64,000 nucleotides of DNA. It comes from Minisyncoccota bacterium (lineage in GTDB: Bacteria; Patescibacteriota; Minisyncoccia; Phycocordibacterales; UBA9973). The notes beneath the pieces were generated by a model that did not search any database, had not been told where the DNA came from, and saw only the letters and a program-made list of their open reading frames with translations. Made by a program: the position numbers and the translations under genes. Shown here one piece after another: positions 741 to 59,055 of this stretch. The stretch covers positions 6,124 to 70,123 of the forward strand of contig DASTLQ010000011.1 in the NCBI GenBank assembly GCA_035714785.1. The letters are read 5' to 3'. Each line of letters begins with the position of its first letter. The stretch's first letter is position 1.

Positions 741-803
741 GTGTAAGGGGACCCCTTACATGTTATCCACAGTGTAAGGGGTCCCCTTGCATGTTATCCA
801 CAG
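741..803. repeat. palindromic repeat family A, two tandem 31-bp units (GTGTAAGGGGWCCCCTTRCATGTTATCCACA)
   Basis: Core palindrome GTAAGGGGACCCCTTAC followed by DnaA-box 9-mer TTATCCACA, twice. Divergent HIT/recJ intergenic region. Confidence 0.9.
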
Positions 804-822
804 GTTGGACGGGTATGGTAGA

Positions 823-3128: not shown

Positions 3129-3138
3129 TCATGAAAAA

Positions 3139-4659
3139 ATGAGGGACAAAATATTTTATAGTGTATGTTTCGGATTTCTTTTAGGAACGCTTATGCGTTC
3201 TTTTGTTTTTATGGAACCATATATTTTTTTCGTGCTCGCGTGTGGGCTTGCGCTTCTAGGTGTAAGGGGACCCCCTACACCTAGCTTGCATGCAAGGGGT
3301 CCCCTTACCCCCGCCACCTCCTTTGCCCTTCCCCGATTATCTGCCCGAGAGTTCCAGGCCTGTTTATCCGTTATATTTTTATGTTTTGGTTTGGGAGTTC
3401 TCCGGTTCCAATTTGCGGACAAAATGTTCCCGGCCGTTTTTGAAACTATGGCTGAGACAAAGATTGAGATCACTGGCACTATAATAGATGAACCAGACGT
3501 GCGGGAAAATAATCAGAAACTGACTGTCGAGATTTCTAAAGAAAATCAAAAGACTCGCATACTCGTGAATACAGGTTTAGAAAAATATTTTCACTACGGT
3601 GATGAGATTTTTTTGGCGGGCAAATTTGAGAAACCAAAAAATTTTCTTCCAAAAGAAGACGAGCCTGAAGCTCGAGAGTTTGATTATGTTTCGTATCTTC
3701 GAAAAGACGGAATCGGCTATATGATGAATTATCCAAAAATAGAAATTACAGGGAAGGGGAAAGGAAATCCAATCAGAGGATTTCTTTTTAGTACAAAAGA
3801 AAAATTTGTTCACAATATTGCTGTTACCGTGCGGAGCCCTGAGTCACTTCTGCTTGGTGGTCTAATTCTTGGGGAACGATCTTCTTTTGATAAGGAGATG
3901 CGACAAAAATTTATTGACACTGGTACCATCCATATCGTGGCACTTTCTGGATACAATGTCACAATTATTTCTGAGTGGATTATAAAAATATTTTCCTTTC
4001 TTCCACAGGCATTCGCGCTTAGTTTTGGAATCTTGGGAATTATTTTGTTTGTTACGATGACGGGCGGACACGCCACCGCTGTGCGAGCAGGAATCATGGC
4101 AGTACTCGCTCTCATCGCTCGGGCGACGGGGCGCAATTATGATGTAGCTAGAGGAATTGTTTTGGCAGCTGTGGTGATGGTTTTAATAAGCCCGCATGTG
4201 CTCGTCTATGATGTCTCCTTTCAGCTTTCATTCATCGCTACGATAGCTGTTATTTTTGTTTCACCAAAGATGGAAAAATATTTCTTGTGGATTCCTGCTA
4301 AATGGCTTCGCGATATCACGGCCACAACTTTTTCTGCATATATATTTGTACTACCTTTCGTTCTGTATAAAATGGGGAACCTTTCTTTGGTCGCCCTTCC
4401 TGCCAATGTTTTGGTACTGCCTACAATTCCCTTCACTATGGTGCTAGGTTTTATGACAGGGTTTGCAGAAATTTTCTCACCAATCCTCTCTGCTCCTTTT
4501 GCTTACGTTGCATATCTTTTGCTTCATTATCAACTCGGGGTGATAGATTTTTTTGCAAAGATTCCGTTCTCCGCATTTATGGTGCCGAGTTTTTCGTTTG
4601 TTTTTGTATTTCTTACTTACGCAATTTTCGCGTATCTATATTTTAGGAAACGTTCTTGA
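3139..4659 (+). CDS. comEC: ComEC/Rec2 competence channel protein, N-terminal DUF4131 + competence domain (no MBL domain)
   Basis: Multi-pass membrane protein with GTIHIVALSGYNVTII (compare ComEC HLLAISGLH). The N-terminal TM region contains an in-frame copy of the palindromic repeat (3259-3312, ..VRGPPTPSLHARGPLTP..). Confidence 0.7.
   Translation: MRDKIFYSVCFGFLLGTLMRSFVFMEPYIFFVLACGLALLGVRGPPTPSLHARGPLTPATSFALPRLSAREFQACLSVIFLCFGLGVLRFQFADKMFPAVFETMAETKIEITGTIIDEPDVRENNQKLTVEISKENQKTRILVNTGLEKYFHYGDEIFLAGKFEKPKNFLPKEDEPEAREFDYVSYLRKDGIGYMMNYPKIEITGKGKGNPIRGFLFSTKEKFVHNIAVTVRSPESLLLGGLILGERSSFDKEMRQKFIDTGTIHIVALSGYNVTIISEWIIKIFSFLPQAFALSFGILGIILFVTMTGGHATAVRAGIMAVLALIARATGRNYDVARGIVLAAVVMVLISPHVLVYDVSFQLSFIATIAVIFVSPKMEKYFLWIPAKWLRDITATTFSAYIFVLPFVLYKMGNLSLVALPANVLVLPTIPFTMVLGFMTGFAEIFSPILSAPFAYVAYLLLHYQLGVIDFFAKIPFSAFMVPSFSFVFVFLTYAIFAYLYFRKRS
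3259..3312. repeat. palindromic repeat family A copy inside comEC coding sequence (in frame)
   Basis: GGTGTAAGGGGACCCCCTACACCTAGCTTGCATGCAAGGGGTCCCCTTACCCCC; translated VRGPPTPSLHARGPLTP. Confidence 0.85.
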
Positions 4660-5355: not shown

Positions 5356-6252
5356 ATGCCGAACCGTCGAAAAAACTCAAAGGTCCTATACGTCGTGTTT
5401 TTCCTGTTGCTCTTAAATGTGTTCTTATTTGTTCATGATAGGCGGGATTCAGATAGGGGGCTTGTGTTTGCTATGTTGGATGTTGGGCAAGGAGATGCAC
5501 TATATATAGAGTCACCGACTGGCACACAGGTGTTAGTAGATGGAGGACCTCTGCGGAAAATTCTTGGAAAGCTTTCCGAGGTGATGCCTTCGTATGATCG
5601 CAAGATAGATGCCCTCATCATGACTCATTCAGACTCGGATCATATTTCGGGTTTCAGTGAAGTCCTGTCGGCGTATGAGGTTGGACAAATGTTTGAACCG
5701 GGCGTGGCCACTGATTCTCTAATTTATGAAAATCTAAAAAAAGAATTAGAAGAAAAAAAGATTCCAAGCGTGATTGCACGAAAGGGAATGCGACTCCATC
5801 TCGGTGGTGGTGCCGTGATTGATATAATTTTTCCAGATAGAGATGTGTATGATTGGGAGACAAATATGGCCTCTCTAGTTTTGAAACTCACCTATGGAGA
5901 TGTTTCCTTCATGCTCACCGGAGATGCTTTGATCGAAACTGAAGAATTGATTTTAAAAGAAACGCCAGCAGAATTTTTAAAAAGCACATATCTAAAAGCT
6001 GGACATCATGGTTCAAAAACTTCCACTTCGCAGAAATTCGCTGAAGCAGTTTCTCCGGAGTACGCGTTAATTTCTGCGGGAAGGGAGAACAACTACGGCC
6101 ACCCGCATCCCGAGGTTTTAGAGATTTTAAAAAGTATAGGTGCACAGATTTTACGCACTGACCATTCTGGCACCCTGTGGATAAAGTGTAAGGGGACCCC
6201 TTACCCCAACATGCAAGGGGACCCCTTGCATGTTATCCACAGGTTCCTATGA
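5356..6252 (+). CDS. ComEC-type metallo-beta-lactamase domain protein (stand-alone MBL half of ComEC)
   Basis: N-terminal TM, then LDVGQGDALYIESPTGTQVLVDGG and HSDSDHISG (MBL HxHxDH). The C-terminal 20 aa (LWIKCKGTPYPNMQGDPLHVIHRFL) are encoded by the palindromic repeat 6185-6243. Confidence 0.75.
   Translation: MPNRRKNSKVLYVVFFLLLLNVFLFVHDRRDSDRGLVFAMLDVGQGDALYIESPTGTQVLVDGGPLRKILGKLSEVMPSYDRKIDALIMTHSDSDHISGFSEVLSAYEVGQMFEPGVATDSLIYENLKKELEEKKIPSVIARKGMRLHLGGGAVIDIIFPDRDVYDWETNMASLVLKLTYGDVSFMLTGDALIETEELILKETPAEFLKSTYLKAGHHGSKTSTSQKFAEAVSPEYALISAGRENNYGHPHPEVLEILKSIGAQILRTDHSGTLWIKCKGTPYPNMQGDPLHVIHRFL
6185..6243. repeat. palindromic repeat family A copy forming the 3' coding tail of the ComEC-MBL ORF
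   Basis: AGTGTAAGGGGACCCCTTACCCCAACATGCAAGGGGACCCCTTGCATGTTATCCACAGG. Confidence 0.85.
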
Positions 6253-7509: not shown

Positions 7510-7527
7510 AGAATAATTAAATAAAGA

Positions 7528-8001: not shown

Positions 8002-8033
8002 AAAGTTAACCGTTTTTCTGGTATATTTCTCAT

Positions 8034-9652: not shown

Positions 9653-11371
9653 ATGAAAGAAGAAATAAAAAAAATAATAAACGAAGCACTGCGAGAGCTT
9701 AAAATAGAAGAGACGGATTTTGCCGTGGAGCATCCAGCTGATTTAAAAAACGGGGACTACTCTGTAAACGTAGCAATGGTTTTAGCAAAACAGCTTGGCT
9801 CCAATCCTCGCGAACTTGCCGAACAGATCGCCCAAAGTGTAAGGGGTCAACATGTAAGGGGACCCCTTACCCCTGAACATGCAAGGGGTCCCCTTACACG
9901 TTATCCACAGGTTGAAAAGGTGGAGGTGGCTGGGGCGGGGTTTTTGAATTTCTATCTTTCGAGAAAATTTTTTGCGGATTCCATAGCGGAGATATTGGAA
10001 AAGAATGATAATTTTGGAAAAAACGAAGAAGGTAAAGGGAAAAAAGTAATAATAGAATATTCTTCCCCAAACATTGCAAAGCCTTTCACTATAGGACATT
10101 TGCGTTCTACTATTATTGGTCACGCCTTGGCTAATATTTTTGAATATAACGGATATGAAGTGCTTCGAGACAATCACCTCGGGGATTGGGGGACACAATT
10201 TGGAAAGCTGATCGTAGCCATCAAGCGATATGGTAATGAAGAAGAAATAGGAAAAGCCGAAAGACCAGTAAAAGCGCTCACAGAACTATATGTAAAATTT
10301 CATGCCGAGGCTGAGAAAGATAAAACATTAGAAGACGAAGCGAGAGCATGGTTTACAAAGCTTGAACAAGGAGATAAAGAAGCTAGAGCCATCTGGCAAA
10401 AGTGTGTAGATTGGTCAATGACAGAATTTTCAAAAATATATGAAAGATTAGGTGCTTCTTTTGATATGACTTTGGGAGAAAGTTTTTTTGAAGACAAAAT
10501 GAAAACAGTGATAGAGGATTTGGAGAAGACTGATTTTTATAAAGAATCAGAAGGAGCAAAACTTGTTTTCTTTCCTGACGAAAAACATCCTCCACTCATG
10601 ATACAAAAAAAAGATGGCAGTACTTTGTATGGGACTCGTGACCTTGCTACCGATAAATATAGGAGGGATACTTGGAACCCAGACTTAGTAGTAAACGAAG
10701 TAGGAATGGAGCAGTCATTATATTTCAAACAGCTTTTTGAAGTAGAAGAAATGCTTGGATATTTTAAAAAAGAACAAAGAGTCCACGTAGCTCATGGTCT
10801 GTATAAATTTAAAGAAGGAAAAATGAGTACCAGAAAAGGAAATGTAATCTGGCTTGAAGACGTGCTTGATGAAGCAAAAAAAAGAGCAGGCAAAATTAAT
10901 GAAGAGACAGCGGAAGTGGTAGGCATAGGGGCGATAAAATTTAATGACCTTCGAAGTGAAAGTCGAAAAGATATTATATTCAACTGGGGGGACATTTTGA
11001 ATTTGGATGGAGACTCTGGTCCTTATGTACAGTATTCGTACGTCCGCACAAAGGCGATAGAAAATAAGGCAAAAGAATTGGGAATAGAAAAAAGCATCGC
11101 TCAGCCAACCGAGGAGATATTTGAGATTGAGAAACTGCTGTATCGTTTTCCGGAAGTGGTATCTCGTGCACGGGAAACTTACGCTCCGCATGTCATCGCT
11201 CAATATCTTTTAGAAGTGGCACACGAATTCAGTTCGTTTTATGGAAATACTCAAGTATTGAAAGAGGAAGATCCTTTCTCTCCGTATAAGCTTGCCGTGG
11301 TCGAAGCGACAGGTATCGTAATCAAAAAAGGCCTTTGGATCCTCGGCATCCAGACCCCCGAAAAAATGTAA
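9653..11371 (+). CDS. argS: arginine--tRNA ligase, with an in-frame palindromic-repeat insertion
   Basis: Arg_tRNA_synt_N (..EKVEVAGAGFLNFYL), class I core (SSPNIAKPFTIGHLRST) and DALR anticodon-binding domain. Bases 9836-9911 are a copy of the GTAAGGGGWCCCCTTAC/TTATCCACA repeat read in frame as RGQHVRGPLTPEHARGPLTRYPQ. Confidence 0.9.
   Translation: MKEEIKKIINEALRELKIEETDFAVEHPADLKNGDYSVNVAMVLAKQLGSNPRELAEQIAQSVRGQHVRGPLTPEHARGPLTRYPQVEKVEVAGAGFLNFYLSRKFFADSIAEILEKNDNFGKNEEGKGKKVIIEYSSPNIAKPFTIGHLRSTIIGHALANIFEYNGYEVLRDNHLGDWGTQFGKLIVAIKRYGNEEEIGKAERPVKALTELYVKFHAEAEKDKTLEDEARAWFTKLEQGDKEARAIWQKCVDWSMTEFSKIYERLGASFDMTLGESFFEDKMKTVIEDLEKTDFYKESEGAKLVFFPDEKHPPLMIQKKDGSTLYGTRDLATDKYRRDTWNPDLVVNEVGMEQSLYFKQLFEVEEMLGYFKKEQRVHVAHGLYKFKEGKMSTRKGNVIWLEDVLDEAKKRAGKINEETAEVVGIGAIKFNDLRSESRKDIIFNWGDILNLDGDSGPYVQYSYVRTKAIENKAKELGIEKSIAQPTEEIFEIEKLLYRFPEVVSRARETYAPHVIAQYLLEVAHEFSSFYGNTQVLKEEDPFSPYKLAVVEATGIVIKKGLWILGIQTPEKM
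9836..9911. repeat. palindromic repeat family A copy inserted in frame in argS
   Basis: AGTGTAAGGGGTCAACATGTAAGGGGACCCCTTACCCCTGAACATGCAAGGGGTCCCCTTACACGTTATCCACAGG. Confidence 0.85.
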
Positions 11372-11374
11372 CGT

Positions 11375-11498
11375 GCAAAGTGCAAGGGGGCTGTGGATAA
11401 CATGTAAGGGGACCCCTTACACTTTATCCACACATACCACCCTTACCTGTGGATAACATGCAAGGGGACCCCTTACCCCTTATCCCGGCGCCCCTTAC
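11375..11498. repeat. cluster of family A repeat units with four DnaA-box 9-mers (argS-ileS intergenic)
   Basis: ..GTGCAAGGGGGCTGTGGATAACATGTAAGGGGACCCCTTACACTTTATCCACACATACCACCCTTACCTGTGGATAACATGCAAGGGGACCCCTTACCCCTTATCCCGGCGCCCCTTAC.. Confidence 0.9.
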
Positions 11499-18974: not shown

Positions 18975-20243
18975 ATGAAAATATCAAAGAAAATCTTACC
19001 AAACGGCTTGCGGGTGGTGACTATTCCGATGAAGGACAATCCTACCGTCACCGCGCTAGTGCTGGTGGAAGCTGGATCAAAATATGAAGACAAGCGAGTA
19101 AATGGAATTTCGCACTTTTTGGAACACATGTGTTTCAAAGGCACCGAGTCTCGCCCAAAAGCGATGACCATATTAAAAGAGCTAGACGCACTCGGGTGTT
19201 CTTACAATGCTTTTACATCGCAAGAATATACTGGCTACTATGCCAAGGCCGACGCTAAGCATTTTAAGAAGATTTTTGACGTAGTATCTGATATATATCT
19301 TCACTCTACTATGCCCGAAGAAGAAATATTGAAAGAGCGGGGAGTAGTGATCGAGGAAATAAATATGTACAAAGACATGCCTCACCGCCACGTGCAGGAT
19401 CTTTTTACATATCTTTTGTACGGCGACCAACCCGCAGGACGAAGTATTTTAGGAACAAAAGAAAATATCCTCAGTATGAATCGAAAGGATTTTCTGGAGT
19501 ATAAAAAAGCTCACTACTTGCCACAGGCGACTGTGATTGCAGTGGCGGGAAAAATCACCGAGAAAGAAGTACTTCGAGAAGCAAACAAGATTTTTGGTGG
19601 AATGAAAAAAGGTAAGAAGTCAGCTAAACCGAAAGTGATAGAAGGTCAAAAGAAACCAGCAATCCTACTAGAGTACAAGAAAACAGATCAGGCGCATTTT
19701 GTGCTGGGGTTCAGAAGTTTTTCGATGTTCGACAAGAGAAGTCCTGCGCTTTCCGTGCTATCGAGCGTTTTTGCGGGAGGAATGAGCTCGCGATTGTATG
19801 AGCGTCTGCGTGAAGAGATGGGAGTGGGGTACTATATGAATGCTTACAATGATACTTCTACCGATCACGGTGTATTTCAGATTTCAGCTGGAGTAGATAA
19901 AACTAGAATCAAAGAAGTGATCGAAGTAGTGCTTCGGGAATGTAAAAAGATAAAAGAAGAGGGGATATCAAGCGAAGAGCTTGCCCGCGCCAAGGAAATG
20001 CTAGTGGGCGGATTAAAGTTTGGGCTCGAATCCACCGATGATATCGCAAATTTTTACGGCGGACAGGAACTTTTGAAAAGAAAAATCTATACTGCCGATG
20101 AAAGAATCACTCGCATCAGGAAAGTCACTCAAAAAGAGGTACAGCAAGCCGCCGCCGATGTGTTCCAAGGCAAGACCTTAAGCATGGCCATGATCGGACC
20201 TTTCAAAAACTCCGACGAATTTTTAAAAATCCTAAAGTTCTGA
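18975..20243 (+). CDS. M16 family zinc peptidase (pitrilysin/insulinase-like)
   Basis: Inverted zinc motif HFLEHMCFKGT (HxxEH); 422 aa. Confidence 0.85.
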   Translation: MKISKKILPNGLRVVTIPMKDNPTVTALVLVEAGSKYEDKRVNGISHFLEHMCFKGTESRPKAMTILKELDALGCSYNAFTSQEYTGYYAKADAKHFKKIFDVVSDIYLHSTMPEEEILKERGVVIEEINMYKDMPHRHVQDLFTYLLYGDQPAGRSILGTKENILSMNRKDFLEYKKAHYLPQATVIAVAGKITEKEVLREANKIFGGMKKGKKSAKPKVIEGQKKPAILLEYKKTDQAHFVLGFRSFSMFDKRSPALSVLSSVFAGGMSSRLYERLREEMGVGYYMNAYNDTSTDHGVFQISAGVDKTRIKEVIEVVLRECKKIKEEGISSEELARAKEMLVGGLKFGLESTDDIANFYGGQELLKRKIYTADERITRIRKVTQKEVQQAAADVFQGKTLSMAMIGPFKNSDEFLKILKF

Positions 20244-20246
20244 TAA

Positions 20247-20340
20247 AGTGTAAGGTGTAAGGGGCCCGGCGCAGGGTAAGGGGTCCCCTTACACTTTATC
20301 CACACCCTGTGGATAACATGCAAGGGGACCCCTTACCCCT
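20247..20340. repeat. family A repeat cluster (M16 peptidase-metG intergenic)
   Basis: GTGTAAGGTGTAAGGGGCCCGGCGCAGGGTAAGGGGTCCCCTTACACTTTATCCACACCCTGTGGATAACATGCAAGGGGACCCCTTACCCC. Confidence 0.9.
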
Positions 20341-20344
20341 AAAT

Positions 20345-21778
20345 ATGAAAAAAACATTCTATCTCACAACGACGCTTCCATACGTAAATGCCCCTCTTCA
20401 TATGGGACACGCCCTTGAGTTTGTACGGGCGGATGCGGTGGTACGTTATAAGCGTTGGACAGGAAATGAGGTCTTTTTTAATACGGGAACTGATGAGCAT
20501 GGTGCAAAAATCTTTGAAAAAGCCAGCGAAGCAGGAATGACGGCGCAGGAATTTGTGGACAAAGGATTTCAGGAGTTCAAAGAATCGCTTTCAATGTTTG
20601 GCATGTCGGAGGACATTCATTTCATCCGCACTACGGATGAAAATCATATAGAAGCGGCTCAAGAATTTTGGCGCCGTTGCGACAAGGCTGGATATATTTA
20701 TAAAAAGAATTACCAAATCAAATATTGTATCGGTTGTGAGTCCGAAAAATCAGATTCTGAGCTCGAAGATGGCAAATGCACTATTCATCCTGATCGCGCA
20801 CTTGAGCTCATCAGCGAAGAAAACTATTTTTTCAAATATTCTGAGTTCGGCGATAAATTGCTCGAATTTTATGAAAAGAATCCAGATTTTGTGGTGCCAG
20901 ATTTTCGTTTTAATGAAGTAAAAAATTTCGTGCGCACGGGTTTGCAGGATTTTTCAATATCTCGCCTGAAAGAAAAGATGCCATGGGGCGTACCAGTACC
21001 GGGGGATGACACTCAGGTGATGTATGTCTGGTTTGATGCGCTTACAAACTATATTTCTACCTTGGGTTGGCCAACAGAAGGAGGTGATTTTGAAAAATTC
21101 TGGGTAAATGGAACTCCTACTCAGTATTGCGGAAAGGACAACACTCGCTTTCAGGCAGCTATGTGGCAAGCGATGCTCATGGGTGCAGGTGTGCCAAATT
21201 CTCGTCAAATAATAGTAAACGGATTCATCATGGGTGGCGGAGGAGTAAAGATGTCAAAGTCTCTTGGAAATGTAGTAGATCCAAAAGATGTGGCTAGCCA
21301 ATATGGCACCGAGGCACTGCGATATTTTCTTTTAGGTGAAGTCGGAAGCTTTGAGGATAGTCCTTTTACCATAGAGCGTTTTAGCGATGCATACAATGCT
21401 AAGCTTTCAAACGGTCTCGGCAATCAGGCGTCCAGAATACTTGCTCTTTCAGAAAAGTATTTAGAAAAAGCTCCGCAGATTTCTGAGGGAGAATATAGCG
21501 AGTATCAAGAAATTTTTGAAAGTTACGATTTAAAGAAGGCGGTAGATTACATATGGGAAAAAATTTCCGCGCTGGATAAGTTTATACAAGAAACGGAACC
21601 ATTCAAAGTGATTAAGAACGATGAGCAGGCCGGCAGGGAACTACTTTCTAAAATGATCGTGGATCTTTATCATATTGCAGAAATGCTGACACCAATCATG
21701 CCCGTGACCTCCGAAAAAATTAAAAGTTTAATCAAGCAGAACAAAAAACCCGAAGCACCCCTCTTTCCCCGCCTCTAG
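20345..21778 (+). CDS. metG: methionine--tRNA ligase (short form without C-terminal tRNA-binding domain)
   Basis: PYVNAPLHMGHAL (HIGH) and KMSKSLGN. The ORF track start 20309 (MDNMQGDPLPLN) lies in the palindromic repeat, so the start is moved to ATG 20345 (MKKTFYLTT). Confidence 0.9.
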   Translation: MKKTFYLTTTLPYVNAPLHMGHALEFVRADAVVRYKRWTGNEVFFNTGTDEHGAKIFEKASEAGMTAQEFVDKGFQEFKESLSMFGMSEDIHFIRTTDENHIEAAQEFWRRCDKAGYIYKKNYQIKYCIGCESEKSDSELEDGKCTIHPDRALELISEENYFFKYSEFGDKLLEFYEKNPDFVVPDFRFNEVKNFVRTGLQDFSISRLKEKMPWGVPVPGDDTQVMYVWFDALTNYISTLGWPTEGGDFEKFWVNGTPTQYCGKDNTRFQAAMWQAMLMGAGVPNSRQIIVNGFIMGGGGVKMSKSLGNVVDPKDVASQYGTEALRYFLLGEVGSFEDSPFTIERFSDAYNAKLSNGLGNQASRILALSEKYLEKAPQISEGEYSEYQEIFESYDLKKAVDYIWEKISALDKFIQETEPFKVIKNDEQAGRELLSKMIVDLYHIAEMLTPIMPVTSEKIKSLIKQNKKPEAPLFPRL

Positions 21779-21848
21779 GGTAAGGGGTCCCCTTACACTT
21801 TATCCACACCCTGTGGATAACATGCAAGGGGACCCCTTACCCTTACAC
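21778..21848. repeat. family A repeat (metG-tatD intergenic)
   Basis: GGGTAAGGGGTCCCCTTACACTTTATCCACACCCTGTGGATAACATGCAAGGGGACCCCTTACCCTTACAC. Nearly identical to the 20280-20340 copy. Confidence 0.9.
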
Positions 21849-31694: not shown

Positions 31695-31735
31695 TCTCTT
31701 CTATCTCTCTGGTCAATACACCTTAAAACGTATTA

Positions 31736-31766
31736 CAAAAAACCACCCTATGGGTGGTTTTTTGTT
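31736..31766 (+). terminator. rho-independent terminator after surface-protein gene 1
   Basis: AAAAAACCACCCTATGGGTGGTTTTTTG. Confidence 0.8.
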
Positions 31767-34399: not shown

Positions 34400-35980
34400 A
34401 TGAACGAAAACAAAACTGGAAGAAGGATTGCGGGACCGGTGGTGCTCATGGTGCTCGATGGCTGGGGATATAGGGAAGACACGAAAGACAATGCCATTGC
34501 AGGCGCGCGAAAGCCCGTTTTTGATAGGTTATGGAGAGAATATCCTCATGCATTACTGAAGGCTTCCGGAGAGGCTGTGGGGCTTCCTGAGGGGCAAATG
34601 GGAAATAGCGAGGTGGGTCATATGACTATCGGAGCTGGACGGCCAGTGGATACAGATTTAGTGAGGATAGATAAAGCAATCAGCTCAGGAGATTTTGAAA
34701 AAAATCCTACATTTCTTGCGATTTTTGATCATGTAAAAAAGCACGGCTCTGTGCTTCATGTGCAAGGATTGGTTTCTCCAGGGGGAGTGCATAGTCATCA
34801 AAATCATCTTTATGCATTTTTACATTTAGCCAAGAAAAATGCTGTGCCAAAGGTGGCTATTCATGTGTTTACAGATGGGAGGGATACTGCTCCGCAGAGT
34901 GCTTCGGCGTATATGAAAGAGCTTGAGTCCGTGTTAGAGATTCTAAATGCAGACAGTGATCCAAAAAATCCCGCCTTCTTTATCGCCACTATCTCTGGTA
35001 GATATTTTGCAATGGACCGAGATCAAAACTGGGACCGCTTGGCAAAGACTGAGCAGGCTATGTTTGATTGCGAGGGGAATGTGTGTGAAATAAAGCCATC
35101 GGCGTACCTGGAAGAGCAATACCAAAAAGGAAAAAGTGATGAGCTTTTGGAGCCAGCAGTGTGTGCTACTCCACTTGGTCTTGGCTGTGCTATCGAAAAA
35201 AATGACGCAGTATTCTTTTTCAATTTTAGAGCAGACAGAGCGCGAATGCTTTCTGAAAAAATGCTTACTCGGCCAGATTTGCCAAATATTCTTTTTGCAA
35301 CTATGACGGAGTACAGGGCGGACTTTTCTTCACTGATTGCTTTTCCGCCTTTTGAACCTAGAGCAACCCTTGGTGGAGAGATTGCGCGGGCTGACATGAA
35401 GCAGTGTCATGTTGCCGAGACAGAAAAATTTGCTCACGTTACTTACTTTTTTAATTGTGGGAGAGAGACGCCGTATGAGGGTGAGAAAGATATCCTCCTG
35501 AAGAGTAGGACGGATATAAAGACGCATGACGAGGCGCCTGAAATGCAAGCGAAGGGGATTGCGGATGCTGTGATTGCAGAAATTGAAAAAGGAGAATGTG
35601 ATTTTATTCTATTAAATTTTGCTAACGCTGACATGGTGGGGCATACAGCCAACGTACCAGCCACTATTGAGGCGGTAGAGGTGGTAGACAGGGAGCTGGG
35701 GCGAATTATGGAGGCGTTAGAGAAAAAAGGTGGAGTGGCGCTCGTCACGGCCGATCATGGAAATGCGGAAGTAAATGTGGATCCTGCGACTGGAATCAGG
35801 CACACTGCGCACACTACTGCCTTGGTGCCGTTTGTGGTGACGGTTTCGGGGGAAATTGCGCACGTTGGTGGAGTGAAAGGTGATGCTCGAGCGGGCGGAC
35901 TGGCCGACGTTGCGCCTACCGTACTTTCCTTGCTCGGACTAGAAATCCCTAACGAAATGACCGGCCGACCTCTCATCTAG
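34400..35980 (+). CDS. gpmI: 2,3-bisphosphoglycerate-independent phosphoglycerate mutase
   Basis: LDGWG.R, NSEVGHMTIGAGR and the C-terminal metal-binding ADHGN; 526 aa. Confidence 0.93.
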   Translation: MNENKTGRRIAGPVVLMVLDGWGYREDTKDNAIAGARKPVFDRLWREYPHALLKASGEAVGLPEGQMGNSEVGHMTIGAGRPVDTDLVRIDKAISSGDFEKNPTFLAIFDHVKKHGSVLHVQGLVSPGGVHSHQNHLYAFLHLAKKNAVPKVAIHVFTDGRDTAPQSASAYMKELESVLEILNADSDPKNPAFFIATISGRYFAMDRDQNWDRLAKTEQAMFDCEGNVCEIKPSAYLEEQYQKGKSDELLEPAVCATPLGLGCAIEKNDAVFFFNFRADRARMLSEKMLTRPDLPNILFATMTEYRADFSSLIAFPPFEPRATLGGEIARADMKQCHVAETEKFAHVTYFFNCGRETPYEGEKDILLKSRTDIKTHDEAPEMQAKGIADAVIAEIEKGECDFILLNFANADMVGHTANVPATIEAVEVVDRELGRIMEALEKKGGVALVTADHGNAEVNVDPATGIRHTAHTTALVPFVVTVSGEIAHVGGVKGDARAGGLADVAPTVLSLLGLEIPNEMTGRPLI

Positions 35981-36052
35981 ATGTAAGGGGACCCCTTACA
36001 CCTAAACCTGTGGATAACATGCAAGGGGACCCCTTACATGTTTCCCTTACAT
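35981..36052. repeat. family A repeat (gpmI-ATPase intergenic)
   Basis: ATGTAAGGGGACCCCTTACACCTAAACCTGTGGATAACATGCAAGGGGACCCCTTACATG. Confidence 0.9.
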
Positions 36053-36076: not shown

Positions 36077-38848
36077 ATGGAAGGAACATTTCTCAAAGAA
36101 ATGCCTCAATTTAAAACGCCTGAAGAGGAGTTAGCGTATTTGCGTGCTCACATGGAGAAAAGAGAAAAGGAACTCGCGGACTTGGGGCACATCGAACGGC
36201 CTCGTGAAAAAGCTGCTGAGGAAATTCTTGGAGAGTATAAAAATACTCCATTAAAGGACGCCATGCATCCGGATTCAACCATGAGCGAAAAGGAAGCAAA
36301 AGGAATTGTGCTTGCTCTGAAGTCTGAAGCGCATGATTCAATCATGGAAGAATTGCTCGGCATTGTGATGACTAAGGGCGTGAAGAACGCGCTTTCTGTG
36401 GTGGAAAATATGAACAATCCACACATCTCCGACGATTTTCACAGAATCCTCATTCAGTACCTGCGTGCGCCGGGTGTTCCGTATCCTTTCAAAGAAGGAA
36501 CTGCACTGTATAAATCTTTTCACCTCACTCTTTTTGAAATTACTCTACCGCCTCCGCTCGATGAAGCAGACAAGCAAAAAAGTTTCAAAGAATTCATCGG
36601 TGCCATGGAGCAATTTTATGCCGGCATGCATTCTATTTCCCTAGGCAAAAACAATATCGAGGAAAATTATTTTGCTCTCGAAGTTGCGCTCTCGGCTGGA
36701 AGCGATGAAGTAGTAATCTATGCCGCAATTCCTGATCAGTACATCACACTTTTTGAAAAACAGGTGATGGCTTTTTACAATCAGGCAAAAATGATCGAGG
36801 TAAAAGATGATTTCAATATTTTTAATGAAAAAGGTGCAGCGGTGGGAGCATATGCCATGCTTTCTGAAAAAGCGGTCCTTCCTCTTCGCACTTATGAAAA
36901 TCTCGACCATGATCCAATGAAAAATATTTTAAATGTTTTTTCAAAACTTGATATTCATGGAGAGGGTGCCGCTATCCAGATTGTAATAGCGCCAGCTGGT
37001 GAAAAATTCATTCAAGACTTCAATGCAATTTTAGAAGATGTGAAAGATGGAATGTCTGTCAAACACGCAGCTGACAATTTGTACAAGTTTAATAAGGCTT
37101 TTTTGAACATTTCTAAAGAATTTCTGTTCGGAACAAAAAAGAGCGAAGACAAATCTGACAAAAATATGTCGGGTAGGAGGCCAGTGGACGAAGGGGCCGC
37201 AGAGAAAATTGGTAAAAAACTTTCCAGCAGTATCATGAAAGCAAATATTCGAGTGATCGCATCTGCAGAGACTCATGCTCGTGCGGAAGCTATTCTCGGA
37301 GAAATTGAATCTTCGTTTAATCAGTTTACGGAGCCTGCAAGCAACTCCATAATTTTTGAAAAAGTGACCGGAAGCAAGGTAAAAAACTTTTTCCATGATT
37401 TTTCATATCGTGCTTTTAGTCGAGATTATACTCTGCCACTAAATTTAAAAGAACTTTCTTCTGTTTTCCATTTCCCAATAGGGATTGGAAGTATGCCCCA
37501 GCTCCGAGAAGCAAAGGCGGGAATTGCACCTGCTCCGATTCAGATGGGAGGAGAGGGAATTGTGCTTGGGATAAACAGCTATCGAGGAAAAGATACTCAA
37601 GTCCGGATGACGCGCGAAGATCGCATGCGTCATTTCTATGTGATCGGTCAGACAGGAACAGGAAAGACCAACATCATGCTCAATATGATCACGCAGGATA
37701 TCGTGAACGGCGATGGTTGTTGCTATATAGATCCGCACGGCACCGATATTCAGACTATTCTTTCGCGTATTCCTAAAGAGCGCATTGACGATGTTATATA
37801 TTTTGATCCCGCTTACATTGCTCGTCCGATGGGATTGAATATGCTCGAATACGATGTTCAATATCCTGAACAAAAGACATTCGTAGTGAATGAAATGATG
37901 AATATTTTCAACAAGCTTTTTGATATGAAAGTGGGAGGCGGGGCGATGTTTGAACAATATTTCCGCAATAGCGCCTTTCTAGTGATGGAAGACCCTGAAT
38001 CTGGCTCTACTTTACTTGAAATTACTAGAGTGTTGGCGGATAAAGAATTTCGAGATATGAAACTTGCGAAGTGCAAGAATCCAATCATCAAACAATTTTG
38101 GATTTCGGCTGAGCAGACTACAGGAGAACAATCCTTGGCAAACTTTGTGCCCTACATTTCTTCTAAATTCGACAATTTCATTTCTAACGACATCATGCGA
38201 CCCGTTGTGCTTCAGCAGAAATCCGTTTTTGATTTTAGAAAAATAATGGATGAGAAAAAAATACTGCTGGTGAATCTTTCTAAAGGAAGGCTTGGGGATA
38301 TAAACGCAAACTTGATCGGGCTGGTGCTGGTTGGAAAAATTCAGATGGCAGCACTGTCGCGTGTAGATATGTTTGGAAAGCCTATGAATGATTTCTATCT
38401 GTATATAGACGAGTTCCAAAATGTGACCACAGATTCCATCGCTTCTATTCTTTCTGAAGCTCGAAAATATAGATTGTCTCTAAACATCGCGCACCAATAT
38501 ATTAATCAGCTTGAGGAAAGTATAAAAAATGCAGTGTTTGGAAACGTAGGATCGATGGCAGTATTCCGCGTGGGAACAGAAGACGCAAACTTTTTGGAAC
38601 AGAAATTTAAGCCGGTATTTACGTCGGCGGACATCGCGCGACTCGATAACTACAATGCCTATATGAGTATGCTGGTAAAAGGGGAGCCGGTGAAGCCGTT
38701 TAATATAAAGACTTTGGCGCCTGAAGCGGGGAATCCAAGCATCGTGGATAGCTTGAAAGAACTTTCCTACTTGAAATATGGCCGAGACCGACAAGAAGTG
38801 GAAACCGAAATCATGTCTCGTTACAGCGGCCTCGAAGGCAAGGTGTAA
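36077..38848 (+). CDS. VirD4/TraG/TraD-like (FtsK-HerA superfamily) P-loop ATPase with ~420 aa N-terminal soluble domain
   Basis: HFYVIGQTGTGKTN Walker A; YLYIDEFQN Walker B; ARKYRLSLNIAHQ matches the conserved TraD/VirD4 C-terminal motif. No TM helices. The stop codon TAA is supplied by the flanking palindromic repeat. Confidence 0.65.
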   Translation: MEGTFLKEMPQFKTPEEELAYLRAHMEKREKELADLGHIERPREKAAEEILGEYKNTPLKDAMHPDSTMSEKEAKGIVLALKSEAHDSIMEELLGIVMTKGVKNALSVVENMNNPHISDDFHRILIQYLRAPGVPYPFKEGTALYKSFHLTLFEITLPPPLDEADKQKSFKEFIGAMEQFYAGMHSISLGKNNIEENYFALEVALSAGSDEVVIYAAIPDQYITLFEKQVMAFYNQAKMIEVKDDFNIFNEKGAAVGAYAMLSEKAVLPLRTYENLDHDPMKNILNVFSKLDIHGEGAAIQIVIAPAGEKFIQDFNAILEDVKDGMSVKHAADNLYKFNKAFLNISKEFLFGTKKSEDKSDKNMSGRRPVDEGAAEKIGKKLSSSIMKANIRVIASAETHARAEAILGEIESSFNQFTEPASNSIIFEKVTGSKVKNFFHDFSYRAFSRDYTLPLNLKELSSVFHFPIGIGSMPQLREAKAGIAPAPIQMGGEGIVLGINSYRGKDTQVRMTREDRMRHFYVIGQTGTGKTNIMLNMITQDIVNGDGCCYIDPHGTDIQTILSRIPKERIDDVIYFDPAYIARPMGLNMLEYDVQYPEQKTFVVNEMMNIFNKLFDMKVGGGAMFEQYFRNSAFLVMEDPESGSTLLEITRVLADKEFRDMKLAKCKNPIIKQFWISAEQTTGEQSLANFVPYISSKFDNFISNDIMRPVVLQQKSVFDFRKIMDEKKILLVNLSKGRLGDINANLIGLVLVGKIQMAALSRVDMFGKPMNDFYLYIDEFQNVTTDSIASILSEARKYRLSLNIAHQYINQLEESIKNAVFGNVGSMAVFRVGTEDANFLEQKFKPVFTSADIARLDNYNAYMSMLVKGEPVKPFNIKTLAPEAGNPSIVDSLKELSYLKYGRDRQEVETEIMSRYSGLEGKV

Positions 38849-39006
38849 GGGGACCCCTTCAAGGGTCCACCTTCGCCAGAGGCGAAGGCGGACCCTTACC
38901 TGTGGATAACATGCAAGGGGACCCCTTACACTTTATCCACCTGTGGATAACATGCAAGGGGACCCCTTCAAGGGTCCACCTTCACCAGAGGCGAAGGCGG
39001 ACCCTT
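38843..39006. repeat. composite repeat cluster: family A units + two copies of family B GC-rich hairpin (AAGGGTCCACCTTCRCCAGAGGCGAAGGCGGACCCTT)
   Basis: GTGTAAGGGGACCCCTTC-AAGGGTCCACCTTCGCCAGAGGCGAAGGCGGACCCTT-ACCTGTGGATAACATGCAAGGGGACCCCTTACACTTTATCCACCTGTGGATAACATGCAAGGGGACCCCTTC-AAGGGTCCACCTTCACCAGAGGCGAAGGCGGACCCTT. Confidence 0.9.
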
Positions 39007-39080
39007 TTGCAAATAAAGGGCTTTCTGGTATACTCATAATATTAAAACCTAATTGGCGTAAGCCATTTTTTTGTATATAT

Positions 39081-39665
39081 ATGAAGCACCCAAAAGAAGA
39101 AAGAACATATGTGATGATTAAGCCCGACGGAGTAAGAAAGGGTTTGACAGGAGAGATTATTCGTCGTTTTGAACAGCGTGATCTAAAGATCGTGGCACTC
39201 GAAATGTTTCAGCCAGTTCATGAGCAGATAGATAATCACTACCCAAAAAATGAAGAATGGATCACTCGCCTTGGAGGCAAGACTCTTAGTACTTATGAAA
39301 AATACGGGTACGACGCTATGGCAGATTTTGGTACAACTGAAGCGGAAAAAATCGGTCCAGAGATCCGAAAGTGGCTTATGGACTATATGGTCAGCGCTCC
39401 TTTGGTAAAAATGGTGGTACAGGGTGTGCATGCAGTGGATGTAGTTCGAAAAATTGCAGGAGACACTATGCCTTACAAAGCAGATATGGGAACAATTCGC
39501 GGAGATTTCTCTATCGATTCTCCTGCGCTTGCAAATAAAGAAAAAAGGGCAGTGATGAATATCGTGCATTGTTCTGAAACTCCTGAAGAAGCTGAACACG
39601 AGATCAAACACTGGTTTGGAAATTCTGTGATTCACGAGTACAAGCGTTTTGGAGTGGATGCATAG
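39081..39665 (+). CDS. ndk: nucleoside-diphosphate kinase
   Basis: ERTYVMIKPDGV, NIVHCSE (active-site His). The ORF track start 38943 (GTG; MDNMQGDPF..) lies in the repeat cluster, so the start is trimmed to ATG 39081. Confidence 0.88.
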   Translation: MKHPKEERTYVMIKPDGVRKGLTGEIIRRFEQRDLKIVALEMFQPVHEQIDNHYPKNEEWITRLGGKTLSTYEKYGYDAMADFGTTEAEKIGPEIRKWLMDYMVSAPLVKMVVQGVHAVDVVRKIAGDTMPYKADMGTIRGDFSIDSPALANKEKRAVMNIVHCSETPEEAEHEIKHWFGNSVIHEYKRFGVDA

Positions 39666-39702
39666 TTTTTATAATTTAAAAACAAAAAAATGATTACGTC
39701 CA

Positions 39703-39731
39703 GTTGTCAGAAATTGGGTTTGGTCTATACT
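39703..39731 (+). promoter_or_regulatory. promoter-like element (TTGTCA-16-TATACT) driving the structured RNA candidate
   Basis: TTGTCAGAAATTGGGTTTGGTCTATACT. Confidence 0.45.
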
Positions 39732-39737
39732 AAAAGT

Positions 39738-39910
39738 AGGGTTATTTTCAATTATTACCTAGTACACTACCCATAGGGAGCCTCGATCGTTTCGTGCCGT
39801 GGTATGAGATGTCTGGCACCCACCTGTAAAACAGGCTATGGTAATATATTGGAAATAACCCTAAGAAAACGTCTCCGCCCTGATGTATGGTTGCGGGGAT
39901 TTTTTCTTAA
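39738..39910 (+). ncRNA. candidate structured small RNA / cis-regulatory leader (6S-like closed-stem architecture), unclassified
   Basis: 5' GUAGGGUUAUUUUCAAUUAUUACC pairs with 3' GGUAAUAUAUUGGAAAUAACCCUAAG to form a ~30-bp imperfect closing duplex with a 12-nt 5' bulge. Internal hairpins GUGCC..GGCAC and CCUG-UAAAA-CAGG. Ends in CUCCGCCC..GCGGGGAUUUUUUCUU. Promoter just upstream; no ORF. Confidence 0.3.
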
Positions 39911-39936
39911 GAGTTCTTTAGTGGTAGAATAATCTT

Positions 39937-40314
39937 ATGGAAAGGAAAAAATTAGGAATACCGTTGGTAATACTCGTTTTTTTTATACTGTTCATCAACT
40001 ATGTGGCGATGAAGTTTCATTGGTATTCTGCTCTTCCATGGTTTGATATGCCCATGCATTTTCTGGGAGGATTCTGGGTAGCTCTTTTGGTTGCATTTAT
40101 TCTACCTAGTCGACACTTTTCTATACATTTTGTTTTAAAAATACTTGCTGGCGTTCTTTTGATCGGCATACTGTGGGAAATTTTTGAAGTGACATTAAAT
40201 ACTATTACCGTAAAAGATACTTTCGACATGGTGGACACTTTGTCGGATCTTTTCTTCGATATCGTTGGTGGCTTGGCTGCTACGCTAGTTCTTTATCGTA
40301 GCTCCAAAGTGTAA
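39937..40314 (+). CDS. VanZ-like family small membrane protein
   Basis: 125 aa, 3-4 TM. DMPMHFLGGF and WEIFEVTL..DTFDMVDTLSDLFFDIVGG resemble VanZ-family motifs. The stop TAA is supplied by the adjacent repeat. Confidence 0.5.
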   Translation: MERKKLGIPLVILVFFILFINYVAMKFHWYSALPWFDMPMHFLGGFWVALLVAFILPSRHFSIHFVLKILAGVLLIGILWEIFEVTLNTITVKDTFDMVDTLSDLFFDIVGGLAATLVLYRSSKV

Positions 40315-40390
40315 GGGGACCCCTTGCATGTTAAGGGTCCACCTTCGCCTCTGGCGAAGGCGGACCCTTGGGCGAAGGTGGACCCTTAAC
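40309..40390. repeat. family A unit + family B hairpin(s) (VanZ-like/beta-CASP intergenic)
   Basis: GTGTAAGGGGACCCCTTGCATGTT-AAGGGTCCACCTTCGCCTCTGGCGAAGGCGGACCCTTGGGCGAAGGTGGACCCTTAAC. Confidence 0.9.
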
Positions 40391-40411
40391 AATTTATGAT
40401 ATAATCTTCAT

Positions 40412-41773: not shown

Positions 41774-41782
41774 CTAGGGTTG

Positions 41783-41866
41783 GGGTAAGGGGTCCCCTTG
41801 CATGTTATCCACAGGTAAGGGTGGTGGGTGTGGATAAAGTGTAAGGGGTCCCCTTACACCTTACTT
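41783..41866. repeat. family A repeat pair (beta-CASP/LOG intergenic)
   Basis: GGGGTAAGGGGTCCCCTTGCATGTTATCCACAGGTAAGGGTGGTGGGTGTGGATAAAGTGTAAGGGGTCCCCTTACACC. Confidence 0.9.
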
Positions 41867-47250: not shown

Positions 47251-47722
47251 GGCACACTCCTTTTTGTTGGTTATGGAAAATAATTTATTTTATATATGAT
47301 GACATAGAATATATGAAAAGTCAAGATTGATACACGTATTCTAACCAATAGCTTGGACGGAATTAATCAATAATTGATTCGGCGTTTTGAAATTAATTCC
47401 CATATGCAACCGTTCTTGATTGTAGTATTGCAGGTATTTCTTTAGAGCGCAATTGATGGAATAGCTACTTATTCCATAATTGCGCAAGGGGGAAATTACC
47501 TGCTACCTTTTGCTTTCACCATTGGAAGCGGGGTAAAAGCAGTTTTTTCAATCATGTTCCGAACGGAAAAACTTCGCTGGACGAGATTTGAAAGCATGGT
47601 GAAATTGGATACTCGAGCCGGCGAAATCGAGTCACAGGTTTTCGCCTGCTGGCGAAACCCGCGACCCCGCCTCGCGCCGTCGCGCTCCGGCTATTCGATT
47701 TCCCTCTGCAGCCACCAGCAAA

Positions 47723-47757
47723 AAGAAAACAGAGTACCGAATGGTACTCTGTTTTCT
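47723..47757 (-). terminator. rho-independent terminator directly after tmRNA 3' end (palindromic, bidirectional)
   Basis: AAAACAGAGTACC-GAAT-GGTACTCTGTTTTCTTTTT. Confidence 0.8.
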
Positions 47758-47762
47758 TTTTG

Positions 47763-51315: not shown

Positions 51316-51377
51316 CTCAGTTGGTAGAGCAGACGACTTATACTCGTCTTGTCCTAGGTTCGAGTCCTAGAGGGCGG
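51305..51377 (+). tRNA. tRNA-Ile (anticodon UAU)
   Basis: 73 nt cloverleaf: acceptor CCGCCCT/AGGGCGG, D-arm GCTC-AGTTGGTA-GAGC, anticodon stem GACGA/TCGTC with loop CTTATAC (U33, anticodon TAT, A37), T-arm CTAGG-TTCGAGT-CCTAG, discriminator A. CCA not encoded. Confidence 0.75.
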
Positions 51378-51380
51378 ACA

Positions 51381-51971: not shown

Positions 51972-51983
51972 AAGCTACCCGCA

Positions 51984-52070
51984 ACATGCAAGGGGACCTG
52001 TGGATAACATGCAAGGGGACCCCTTACACTTTATCCACACCCACTAACATGCAAGGGGACCCCTTACACC
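51984..52070. repeat. family A repeat cluster (HD hydrolase/recG convergent intergenic)
   Basis: CATGCAAGGGGACCTGTGGATAACATGCAAGGGGACCCCTTACACTTTATCCACACCCACTAACATGCAAGGGGACCCCTTACACC. Confidence 0.9.
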
Positions 52071-57852: not shown

Positions 57853-57909
57853 TGGTTGTGTTTTCAGTATACACTCAAAAAACCAAGACACAAGCAGGGT
57901 AAGAGTTTA

Positions 57910-57974
57910 GGTGTAAGGGGACCCCTTACCCTGTGGATAACATGCAAGGGGTCCCCTTACATGTTATCCACAGG
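57910..57974. repeat. family A composite 45-bp near-perfect palindrome (two inverted DnaA boxes around the core)
   Basis: GGTGTAAGGGGACCCCTTACC-CTGTGGATAACATGCAAGGGGTCCCCTTACATGTTATCCACAGG. Confidence 0.9.
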
Positions 57975-58588: not shown

Positions 58589-58611
58589 CCCGCAATTATA
58601 TCATACGGGTT

Positions 58612-58645
58612 AGGTGTAAGGGGACCCCTTGCATGTTATCCACAG
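58612..58645. repeat. family A single unit (dedA/hypothetical divergent intergenic)
   Basis: GGTGTAAGGGGACCCCTTGCATGTTATCCACAG. Confidence 0.9.
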
Positions 58646-58676: not shown

Positions 58677-59033
58677 ATGGTTGATCCCGAACTCATTTCG
58701 TACATAAGAAGCGCTATGTCAGAAGGACAGGCGAAAGAAAAAATCCTTGCAGATTTAGAGTCGCACGGGTGGGCAAAGGAAGAGATTGCTGAAGCATATA
58801 CTCGTATCGAGAATCCACTTGCTTTAGAAGTACCTGAAAGAGTTCCACACTTTAGAAAAGACCGTCCATTTCTATGGCTCAAAGTTTTAATTCCATTTCT
58901 TATTTTACTCGCGCTGATTTTTCTTGCAGTTCAATACTATTTTGAAGACGTAATGGTTTTTCTAGGTATTTCGCCTGAAGCGCTGGGGGAAATCATTGAC
59001 GAAAACCTTCAAATGCTCAAAAATTCTATCTAG
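58677..59033 (+). CDS. hypothetical protein with C-terminal TM helix
   Basis: 118 aa; no motif; stop codon abuts the palindromic repeat. Confidence 0.4.
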   Translation: MVDPELISYIRSAMSEGQAKEKILADLESHGWAKEEIAEAYTRIENPLALEVPERVPHFRKDRPFLWLKVLIPFLILLALIFLAVQYYFEDVMVFLGISPEALGEIIDENLQMLKNSI

Positions 59034-59055
59034 GTGTAAGGGGTCCCCTTACCCC
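59033..59055. repeat. family A core palindrome only (convergent intergenic, comF 3' end)
   Basis: GGTGTAAGGGGTCCCCTTACCCC. Confidence 0.8.

Follow-up and report, generated by a model that had tools for sequence, protein, structure and literature searches.

A GC-rich 37-nt hairpin nested with short palindromic repeats in a Minisyncoccota genome: a possible low-copy variant of a REP-like repeat system

In published surveys, REP (repetitive extragenic palindromic) elements are described as 20-40-bp palindromes whose dimers make larger hairpins, and several families may be present per genome (PMC3733652). REP termini donate stop codons, in-frame intragenic copies are found in genes including those of tRNA synthetases, some REPs are associated with other palindromes, and the spacers between co-directional and convergent genes are preferred (PMC3733652). 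REPINs are inverted REP doublets mobilised by a single-copy REP-associated tyrosine transposase (RAYT) (PMC3116915). The Rickettsia palindromic elements (RPEs) are the classic example of palindromes inserted in-frame in a reduced genome, and the BOX, RUP, and SPRITE repeats of pneumococcus nest in clusters (PMC10969869). Here I analyse two short palindromic repeats, named family A and B, in a 64,000-nt stretch of a Minisyncoccota bacterium (GenBank assembly GCA_035714785.1, contig DASTLQ010000011.1, positions 6,124 to 70,123, forward strand), hereafter called the window. B is a GC-rich hairpin found together with family A in two neighbouring intergenic spacers. Genomes of the candidate phyla radiation (CPR)/Patescibacteria are among the smallest and most streamlined, and no description of REP-like repeats in them was found in the literature. 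I lean, with some reserve, towards the view that B is a low-copy member of the lineage-specific short palindromic repeat system of family A, a REP/REPIN-like non-autonomous selfish DNA.

B is a 37-nt hairpin, AAGGGTCCACCTTCGCCAGAGGCGAAGGCGGACCCTT, in which the arm AAGGGTCCACCTTCGCC, an AGA loop, and the arm GGCGAAGGCGGACCCTT follow one another, so that 17-bp arms enclose a 3-nt loop. A preliminary description of this DNA had placed such a palindrome twice within 38843-39006 and again, partly duplicated, at 40325-40390. This was borne out: three copies were located where 100 dinucleotide shuffles expect 0.00 matches to the 37-mer, and the partial duplication at the third copy is a seventh arm. 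The features of the two loci are listed below in window positions.

38843..38860, + strand: family A core 1, GTGTAAGGGGACCCCTTC, whose TAA (38846-38848) terminates the TraG/VirD4-like open reading frame (ORF) 36077-38848
38861-38897, no strand: B copy 1, 0 mismatches, 17-bp arms, AGA loop
38898..38969, no strand: two family A units between B copies 1 and 2, with cores at 38915-38927 and 38956-38968 and the CTGTGGATAAC module on each
38970-39006, no strand: B copy 2, 1 mismatch (G to A at arm position 15)
39007..39034, + strand: ndk promoter-like site TTGCAA-16-TG-TATACT; it begins one base past B copy 2, lies outside the repeat as its right boundary, and is conserved in a relative (L119, see below)
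40306..40332, + strand: family A unit AAAGTGTAAGGGGACCCCTTGCATGTT, whose TAA (40312-40314) terminates the DUF2238 ORF 39937-40314 and whose arm is cut short at the start of B
40333-40369, no strand: B copy 3, arms identical to those of copy 1, loop TCT in place of AGA
40371-40387, no strand: additional right arm, GGCGAAGGTGGACCCTT, perfectly complementary to the left arm of B copy 3
40397..40405, + strand: beta-CASP extended -10 box TGATATAAT, the right boundary of the A+B insertion

The 17-nt arms of B were observed seven times in the window against 0.2 expected, the seventh being the one at 40371-40387. Together with it, copy 3 makes a perfect 21-bp stem across 40329-40391 (-44.9 kcal/mol). 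B had been called strikingly GC-rich, and its GC content is indeed 0.62-0.65 against 0.37-0.47 in 2-kb windows and 42% in the whole window. The predicted RNA hairpins of the + strand have energies of -29.8 and -24.4 kcal/mol, those of the - strand -33.3 and -31.4 kcal/mol, and the folding z-scores are -6 to -8 relative to shuffles. At arm position 9 of copy 1 there is an A.C mismatch on the + strand, which is G.U on the - strand, and this stem mismatch is kept in all B copies. None of the six frames of B contains a stop codon. Within the 64-kb window, no further B copies were found outside one 1.5-kb stretch.

Palindromes and repeats are error-prone in metagenome assembly, and short-read contigs break at them; the feature might accordingly be suspected to be an artefact (a palindromic chimera, for instance, or a collapsed repeat). 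However, the Logan contigs of run SRR10492801, which come from a different assembler, contain the A/B junctions, B copy 2, and copy 3 in both of its halves, the extra arm included. The two contigs concerned (L131 and L123) break at the palindrome centre. An artefact thus has a negligible probability, and the B hairpin is real.

The local gene order is iPGM, the TraG/VirD4-like gene, an A+B cluster, ndk, a conserved small RNA, DUF2238, a second A+B cluster, beta-CASP, an A cluster, and a LOG-like gene. In each A+B cluster, B lies between the upstream stop codon and the following promoter. The ndk and beta-CASP genes were said to start right after these clusters, and this is so: the ndk ATG (39084) is 78 nt past B copy 2, and the beta-CASP ATG (40412) is 21 nt past the long palindrome. 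The long form of copy 3 stops 5 nt ahead of TGATATAAT, which in turn is 6 nt ahead of the beta-CASP ATG. As for the junctions, copies 1 and 2 adjoin an A core in the same manner, GGGGACCCCTTC/AAGGG, where the slash marks the boundary. An A core, TTC, and B constitute a 54-nt direct repeat (38844-38897 and 38953-39006, 96% identical) of which copy 2 is the 3' part. Thus, copies 1 and 2 represent one event plus a local duplication. The A units between them (38898..38969) form a hairpin doublet with 26-nt arms. At copy 3, the A core GGGGACCCCTT is followed by 7 extra A-arm bases, GGGGACCCCTT-GCATGTT/AAGGG, and B begins after TTGCATGTT. Direct fusion of every B to an A core, as had been described, therefore applies to copies 1 and 2, while copy 3 is adjacent to its core at an offset of 7 A-arm bases. 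The flanks of B are TTC/../ACC for copy 1, TTC/../TTT for copy 2, and GTT/../GGG for copy 3. There are at most two independent B loci, and their junctions are unlike (TTC/ versus TTGCATGTT/).

Family A is far more abundant than B. Its core, AAGGGGWCCCCTT, occurs 28 times in 15 clusters within the window, where about 0.06 one-mismatch matches are expected by chance. Two cores are present in 11 of the 15 clusters and three cores in one, and most clusters fold to hairpins with 16-49-nt arms. The full unit is modular and consists of CTGTGGATAA, CATGCAA or AGTGTAA, GGGGWCCCC, TTGCATG or TTACACT, and TTATCCACAG. In the closest relative, L122 (82% identity; a 2.76-kb contig of JGI 3300009868), a different core, here called A', was found. 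A 13-nt frame, AAGG-N5-CCTT, is shared by all of these repeats: it is AAGG-GGWCC-CCTT in A, AAGG-TCSGA-CCTT in A', AAGG-GTCCA-CCTT in the left arm of B, and AAGG-GTCCG-CCTT in the reverse complement of the right arm (GTCCR for B). Aligned locally, a B arm agrees with A, and likewise with A', at 10 of 11 positions if one indel is allowed (for each, p is about 0.03 versus shuffles). A covariance model of B scored the three B copies at 62-66 bits, and the next-best hits were only the tight A doublets at 9856-9895, 745-788, 57915-57958, and 6190-6227 (18-22 bits) and the L122 doublet (24 bits). These hits and the shared frame together suggest that B has the compact inverted doublet geometry of a variant core. 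Judging from the sequence, B internally looks like two inverted 13-nt variant cores with CGCC-AGA-GGCG as the link between them. A link to restriction-modification via GGWCC, which is common to A, A', and B, was considered and rejected; GGWCC shows no avoidance outside the repeats (63 observed versus 72 expected).

B had been regarded as a second, separate family. Since its arms share the AAGG-N5-CCTT frame and the covariance model next finds A doublets, B is probably no unrelated family. In a stronger form, B would be an independent mobile family with its own enzyme specificity that inserts into family A units. All three B copies adjoin an A core, as such targeting would have it, and the A.C stem mismatch in all copies recalls the imperfect hairpins of HUH transposases. 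HUH transposases recognise imperfect hairpins. It has also been published that REP families are sometimes inserted within other palindromes (PMC3733652). However, only two independent loci with unlike junctions are available, the 13 other A clusters lack B, the B arms have the A-type core frame, and neither a target-site duplication nor a tag accompanies B. I consider this possibility rather unlikely. A composite or hierarchical element resembling the bacterial interspersed mosaic elements (BIMEs) had been proposed as well. Two repeat types do lie in a mosaic, as BIMEs mix REP types, and this part of the proposal is retained; the role of one repeat as the target of the other rests on two loci with unlike junctions.

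The favoured reading, in which B is a low-copy member of the family A system, also has a number of results against it. In statistical terms, the B arms resemble the A and A' cores only weakly (p about 0.03). The three B copies represent at most two independent events, all within 1.5 kb, so that dispersal of B is unproven, and the two copies sharing one spacer are direct, not inverted. A comparison of the flanks for target-site duplications had been proposed; it detected neither a target-site duplication nor a direct repeat common to the three copies. No unpaired GTAG/CTAC or CGTC/GACG tag is present at the flanks of any of the three, and a Pfam search of about 46 of the larger ORFs found no transposase domain in the 64-kb window. 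The presence of a RAYT-like Y1_Tnp gene in the clade (in the relative L125) was counted in favour of a REP-like nature, yet L125 itself has no A-type repeats. The full B hairpin pattern had 0 matches in the JGI metagenome contigs and IMG/VR, a blastn search of plasmids and phages with the 171-nt cluster gave no match, and the six-frame B peptides yielded 17 candidates among 5.8e9 proteins, none of them scoring.

Some other searches were also empty. By the same six-frame peptide query, B was not found inside any ORF of the proteins searched. A 24-mer of family A had 0 matches in the JGI metagenome contigs and IMG/VR. The window contains no insertion sequence (IS) elements, and a tblastn search of it with the L125 RAYT-like protein gave no match. 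The 17-nt arm, a pattern too short for this purpose, gave 118 single chance matches in unrelated high-GC genomes of GTDB, with no hairpin and no A core. The TAA...TAA at the 40.3-kb insertion was examined as a candidate target-site duplication and dismissed, as its left TAA is simply part of AAAGTGTAA, a conserved stretch of the A unit.

Is the A+B arrangement found in related genomes? Syntenic contigs of five relatives with 75-78% beta-CASP identity (L119-L121, L124, and L125) and three syntenic contigs of arginyl-tRNA synthetase (ArgRS) homologues at 70-71% (L128-L130) were compared in addition to L122. The beta-CASP homologues carry the names Paceibacterota/Nomurabacteria. Repeats of A, B, or TTATCCACA were not found in the syntenic contigs of these eight relatives, and the spacers of the distant relatives at the A+B positions are 2-23 nt. 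L122 has a 2-nt gap at the site of A+B in the window. By sequence comparison, the A+B elements are thus insertions relative to close relatives. L122 does have four copies of a different palindromic core, GTAAGGTCSGACCTTAC, joined to the CTGTGGATAAC/GTTATCCACAG module as in the window (positions 12-56 and 2069-2136); its own core, written AAGGTCSGACCTT, is carried on the CTGTGGATAAC module. In both genomes, the layout of the beta-CASP/LOG spacer is the stop codon, a core, GTTATCCACAG, a spacer of about 15 nt, TGTGGAWAA, a core, and the promoter. An L122 doublet lies downstream of ndk, where the window has none. Since the window lacks this doublet and the A+B site is empty in L122, repeats have been gained or lost since the split of the two lineages. 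As far as the compared sequences go, the A/A' system is restricted to a small sub-clade in which each genome has its own homogeneous core. The cores of L122 and the window imply core replacement or concerted evolution of the repeat population.

In L119 and L125, a CYTH gene separates ndk from the TraG-like gene; the window lacks this gene exactly at the 38843-39006 cluster, and its loss may have been a repeat-associated deletion. Window 38849-39083 was compared here with the 2952-3527 region of L119, which holds the CYTH-domain gene. In L125 (GCA_943354905.1, CALRDL010000002.1), the RAYT-like Y1_Tnp gene (7388-8062; motifs YHVYNRG and HFHFVL) is flanked by 24-nt inverted repeats (7343-7366 and 8050-8073). 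This gene and a His_Phos_1 gene are enclosed at 6737-8135 by a 57-nt direct duplication of the CYTH gene end. The region looks like an inserted cassette in a relative lacking A-type repeats.

The family A clusters outside the A+B loci are as follows.

741..804, no strand: doublet between the divergent HIT (-) and RecJ (+) genes
3255..3311, no strand: doublet in-frame in the N-terminal region of the ComEC-like ORF 3139-4659; peptide ..GVRGPPTPSLHARGPLTP..
6174..6243, no strand: doublet encoding the last ~20 amino acids up to the stop codon of the MBL-fold ORF 5356-6252, replacing the C-terminus
9836..9911, no strand: doublet in-frame in the ArgRS ORF 9653-11371
11384..11496, no strand: doublet between the genes of ArgRS and isoleucyl-tRNA synthetase (IleRS)
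20242..20341, no strand: doublet with 31-nt arms, 90% complementary, between the M16 peptidase and methionyl-tRNA synthetase (MetRS) genes
21777..21845, no strand: doublet with 32-nt arms, 91% complementary, between MetRS and TatD
35976..36050, no strand: doublet between iPGM and the TraG-like gene
41782..41866, no strand: doublet between beta-CASP and the LOG-like gene; the L122 spacer has the same layout with another core
51983..52070, no strand: doublet between the convergent HD-domain and RecG genes
57906..57974, no strand: doublet between a VTT-domain gene and the SAM riboswitch/metK
58609..58645, no strand: single unit between divergent genes
59029..59055, no strand: single unit between convergent genes

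Co-directional, convergent, and divergent spacers are all occupied by family A clusters. Because these are present in every spacer type and also in-frame in essential genes, family A behaves as invasive DNA and not as a 3'-end signal. GTGTAA of the A unit is the source of the stop codons of ORFs 36077-38848 and 39937-40314. In ArgRS, an alignment with the 11 closest homologues and PDB 6ao8 revealed that the repeat is a 16-18-aa insertion, RGPLTPEHARGPLTRY, unique to this genome; the window ArgRS is 100% identical to NCBI HEU0085705.1, in keeping with a Candidatus Paceibacterota source. The A arm TTGCAT was tried as a supplier of -35 boxes and discarded, its spacing to the downstream -10 boxes being inconsistent.

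How do these repeats compare with the known systems? They resemble REP, BIME, and REPIN elements in being GC-rich imperfect palindromes of 20-40 nt that are dense in spacers and mostly arranged as inverted doublets with long hairpins. Mosaics of types, stop codon donation, in-frame copies in tRNA synthetases, and lineage-specific sequences that are unlike between sister species are further likenesses. The many-copy short extragenic palindrome typical of REPs is represented by family A, while B is a 37-nt palindrome with three clustered copies in 64 kb. Similarly, the over-represented inverted doublets of REPINs are seen in family A, while the B copies in one spacer are direct repeats. On the other hand, the unpaired GTAG (or CGTC) tetranucleotide that is conserved at one stem-loop end of tagged REPs (Di Nocera 2013) is lacking, GTAA/TTAC of family A is base-paired, and the arms of the clustered B copies are 17 bp in length versus the 6-13 bp typical of REPs. 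The A units carry the conserved DnaA-box-like module CTGTGGATAAC, and the host is a reduced member of the Patescibacteria. In the REPIN-RAYT system, a cognate single-copy RAYT gene (Y1_Tnp, PF01797) is carried by the same genome and commonly has REPs at its flanks; Pfam and tblastn searches found no such gene in the 64-kb window. By analogy, A and B appear to work like REP/REPIN elements and may be a further repeat family of this broad type, in a phylum new as a host.

Like RPEs, the window repeats occur in a reduced genome and are inserted in-frame in essential genes without stop codons; family A lies in ArgRS and ComEC, and B is open in six frames. However, RPEs are about 100-150 bp, have a conserved peptide, and are specific to Rickettsia, whereas the units in the window are 13-45 nt. 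Size and host thus differ, and the behaviour of family A alone is analogous. Correia elements and the BOX, RUP, and SPRITE repeats are also small non-autonomous spacer repeats that are bunched and nested, and SPRITE resembles a terminator hairpin (PMC10969869). Miniature inverted-repeat transposable elements differ in having IS-derived terminal inverted repeats and target-site duplications; in the window, neither a consistent duplication nor a parent IS was found. The target-site duplication of Correia elements is TA.

Next, it may be asked whether B serves the host as a cis element, that is, as a terminator, an insulator, or a 3'-end mRNA stabiliser at the TraG-like/ndk and DUF2238/beta-CASP junctions. 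B is placed precisely in the interval from a stop codon to the promoter that comes after it, it forms very stable hairpins, TTTTG follows copy 2, and REPs are known to stabilise upstream mRNA (PMC3733652). As a GC-rich hairpin just past a stop codon, B is similar to an intrinsic terminator. However, its stem is far longer, and copies 1 and 3 have no U-tract. A scan of 38600-40600 for a GC-rich stem with a 3-8-nt loop and, within 8 nt, no fewer than 5 consecutive T called no site at B, while canonical T-run terminators exist elsewhere in the window (47719-47762, 31735-31765, and 39872-39908). The relatives cope with the 2-23-nt spacers at the corresponding junctions. Moreover, there are no compensatory changes among the B copies, and both mismatches make the sense-strand hairpin weaker. 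(The strand asymmetry of B was set aside as a signal of its own; it concerns two positions only, and any transition in a DNA palindrome gives an identical pattern.) Selection by the host as a cis element is therefore doubtful, to about the same degree as the independent mobile family. A role of B as a terminator or RNA stabiliser would be incidental, if there is any.

It had also been suggested that these hairpins are a structured RNA motif transcribed at gene 3' ends. This was not supported, given the lack of covariation, Rfam matches, and U-tracts and the location of family A also between divergent genes and inside ORFs. Rfam 15 gave no hits at gathering scores in the B region and only spurious miRNA-hairpin matches at E<=5 (27 bits versus an 80-bit threshold), and ARAGORN detected no tRNA there. 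A degraded tRNA or rRNA, which had been named as an origin that would undermine the repeat interpretation, is rejected on these empty searches.

Another possibility is that B and A form a site for a DNA-binding protein, either an operator common to the ndk and beta-CASP promoters or a DnaA-titrating array. Copy 2 ends at the -35 box of ndk, and copy 3 overlaps the -35 position of beta-CASP. In the window, 17 perfect TTATCCACAG sites are found in A units against 0.1 expected, and the module is conserved in L122 although the core differs. On the other hand, copy 1 is away from any promoter, and with spacers so short, any insertion would adjoin a promoter. At 17 bp, the arms far exceed the usual size of operators, no DnaA box is present in B itself, and the A units within ORFs speak against site-specific regulation. 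Such a protein-binding site is very improbable. Only slightly less improbable is a broader version in which A, A', and B are host-integrated, the AAGG-N5-CCTT core being coupled to the perfect DnaA box TTATCCACA in a genome-wide DnaA-titration or chromosome-structuring array that co-evolves with a DNA-binding protein. If true, this would account for the sister species keeping the module and the layout at an orthologous spacer while changing the core, and B would be a variant site at two promoters. Within the 64 kb, TTATCCACA(G), a perfect match to the DnaA-box consensus, is found 17 times (0.1 expected) between 763 and 58645, every time inside an A unit. At this density, the sub-megabase genome would have hundreds of high-affinity DnaA boxes outside oriC.

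Under the favoured reading of B as a member of a REP-like system, the following course of events may be envisaged. B would have entered the two neighbouring spacers along with, or beside, an A unit in at most two insertions. In the first spacer, B and its A core may have been duplicated on the spot as one 54-nt unit, while in the second, B may have gained the extra arm and the flipped loop by slippage or template switching on the hairpin. The copying enzyme would act in trans, its gene lying in some other part of the genome, and the best candidate would be a RAYT/IS200-type Y1 HUH transposase that works on the hairpin when the DNA is single-stranded. B is presumably co-transcribed in the 3' untranslated region of the upstream gene, where a hairpin of -24 to -45 kcal/mol would incidentally hinder read-through and 3' exonucleases.

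The main value of these observations may be that they draw attention to a REP/RPE-like repeat system, so far unreported, in a Paceibacteria genome, a phenomenon itself familiar in kind. About 2% of the window is short palindromic repeats. The repeats rewrite stop codons, add 16 amino acids to an essential aminoacyl-tRNA synthetase, and break short-read assemblies at each copy. A different core on a common scaffold in a sister species makes this a compact system to study the turnover of REP-like populations. B alone adds little; it shows that the system yields variant longer hairpins and local mosaics. In practical terms, the repeats account for contig fragmentation and mis-called ORFs in metagenome-assembled genomes (MAGs) of this sort, such as the 240-aa 'ndk' ORF. 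This GTG-start ORF (38943-39665) runs through B copy 2 and is an over-extended ndk, the true start being 39084. The Logan contigs L123, L127, and L131 of SRR10492801 end within A or B repeats, although L127 spans the A doublet inside ArgRS. The A/B repeats are probably behind the poor contiguity of the short-read assemblies of this MAG.

Some minor observations were made on the neighbouring genes. Extended -10 boxes (TGnTAtAAT) lie 6-10 nt ahead of several start codons, such as that of beta-CASP at 40412 and those of the genes after 36061 and 41876. The positions of these boxes suggest that the mRNAs of such genes are leaderless or nearly so. The -10 box of ndk (39027-39034) is 49 nt upstream of its ATG. 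Upstream of DUF2238 lies a small RNA (39737-39863), about 127 nt in length and folded as a long hairpin, with a promoter-like TTGTCA-16-TATACT (39704-39731) ahead of it and a canonical terminator (39864-39908) behind it. This RNA is conserved in L122, L119, L125, and L124, and it accompanies DUF2238 even without an adjacent ndk. Compensatory changes are seen in 9 of its 59 predicted pairs (four sequences), and it matches no Rfam family at E<=5. In the 1183-aa IleRS (ORF 11525-15076), a His_Phos_1 domain (residues 521-676) is inserted in the class I synthetase catalytic domain. Finally, a tRNA-Ile with the anticodon TAT (UAU) is encoded at 51306-51379; this tRNA is an uncommon bacterial route for reading AUA without the lysidine modification.

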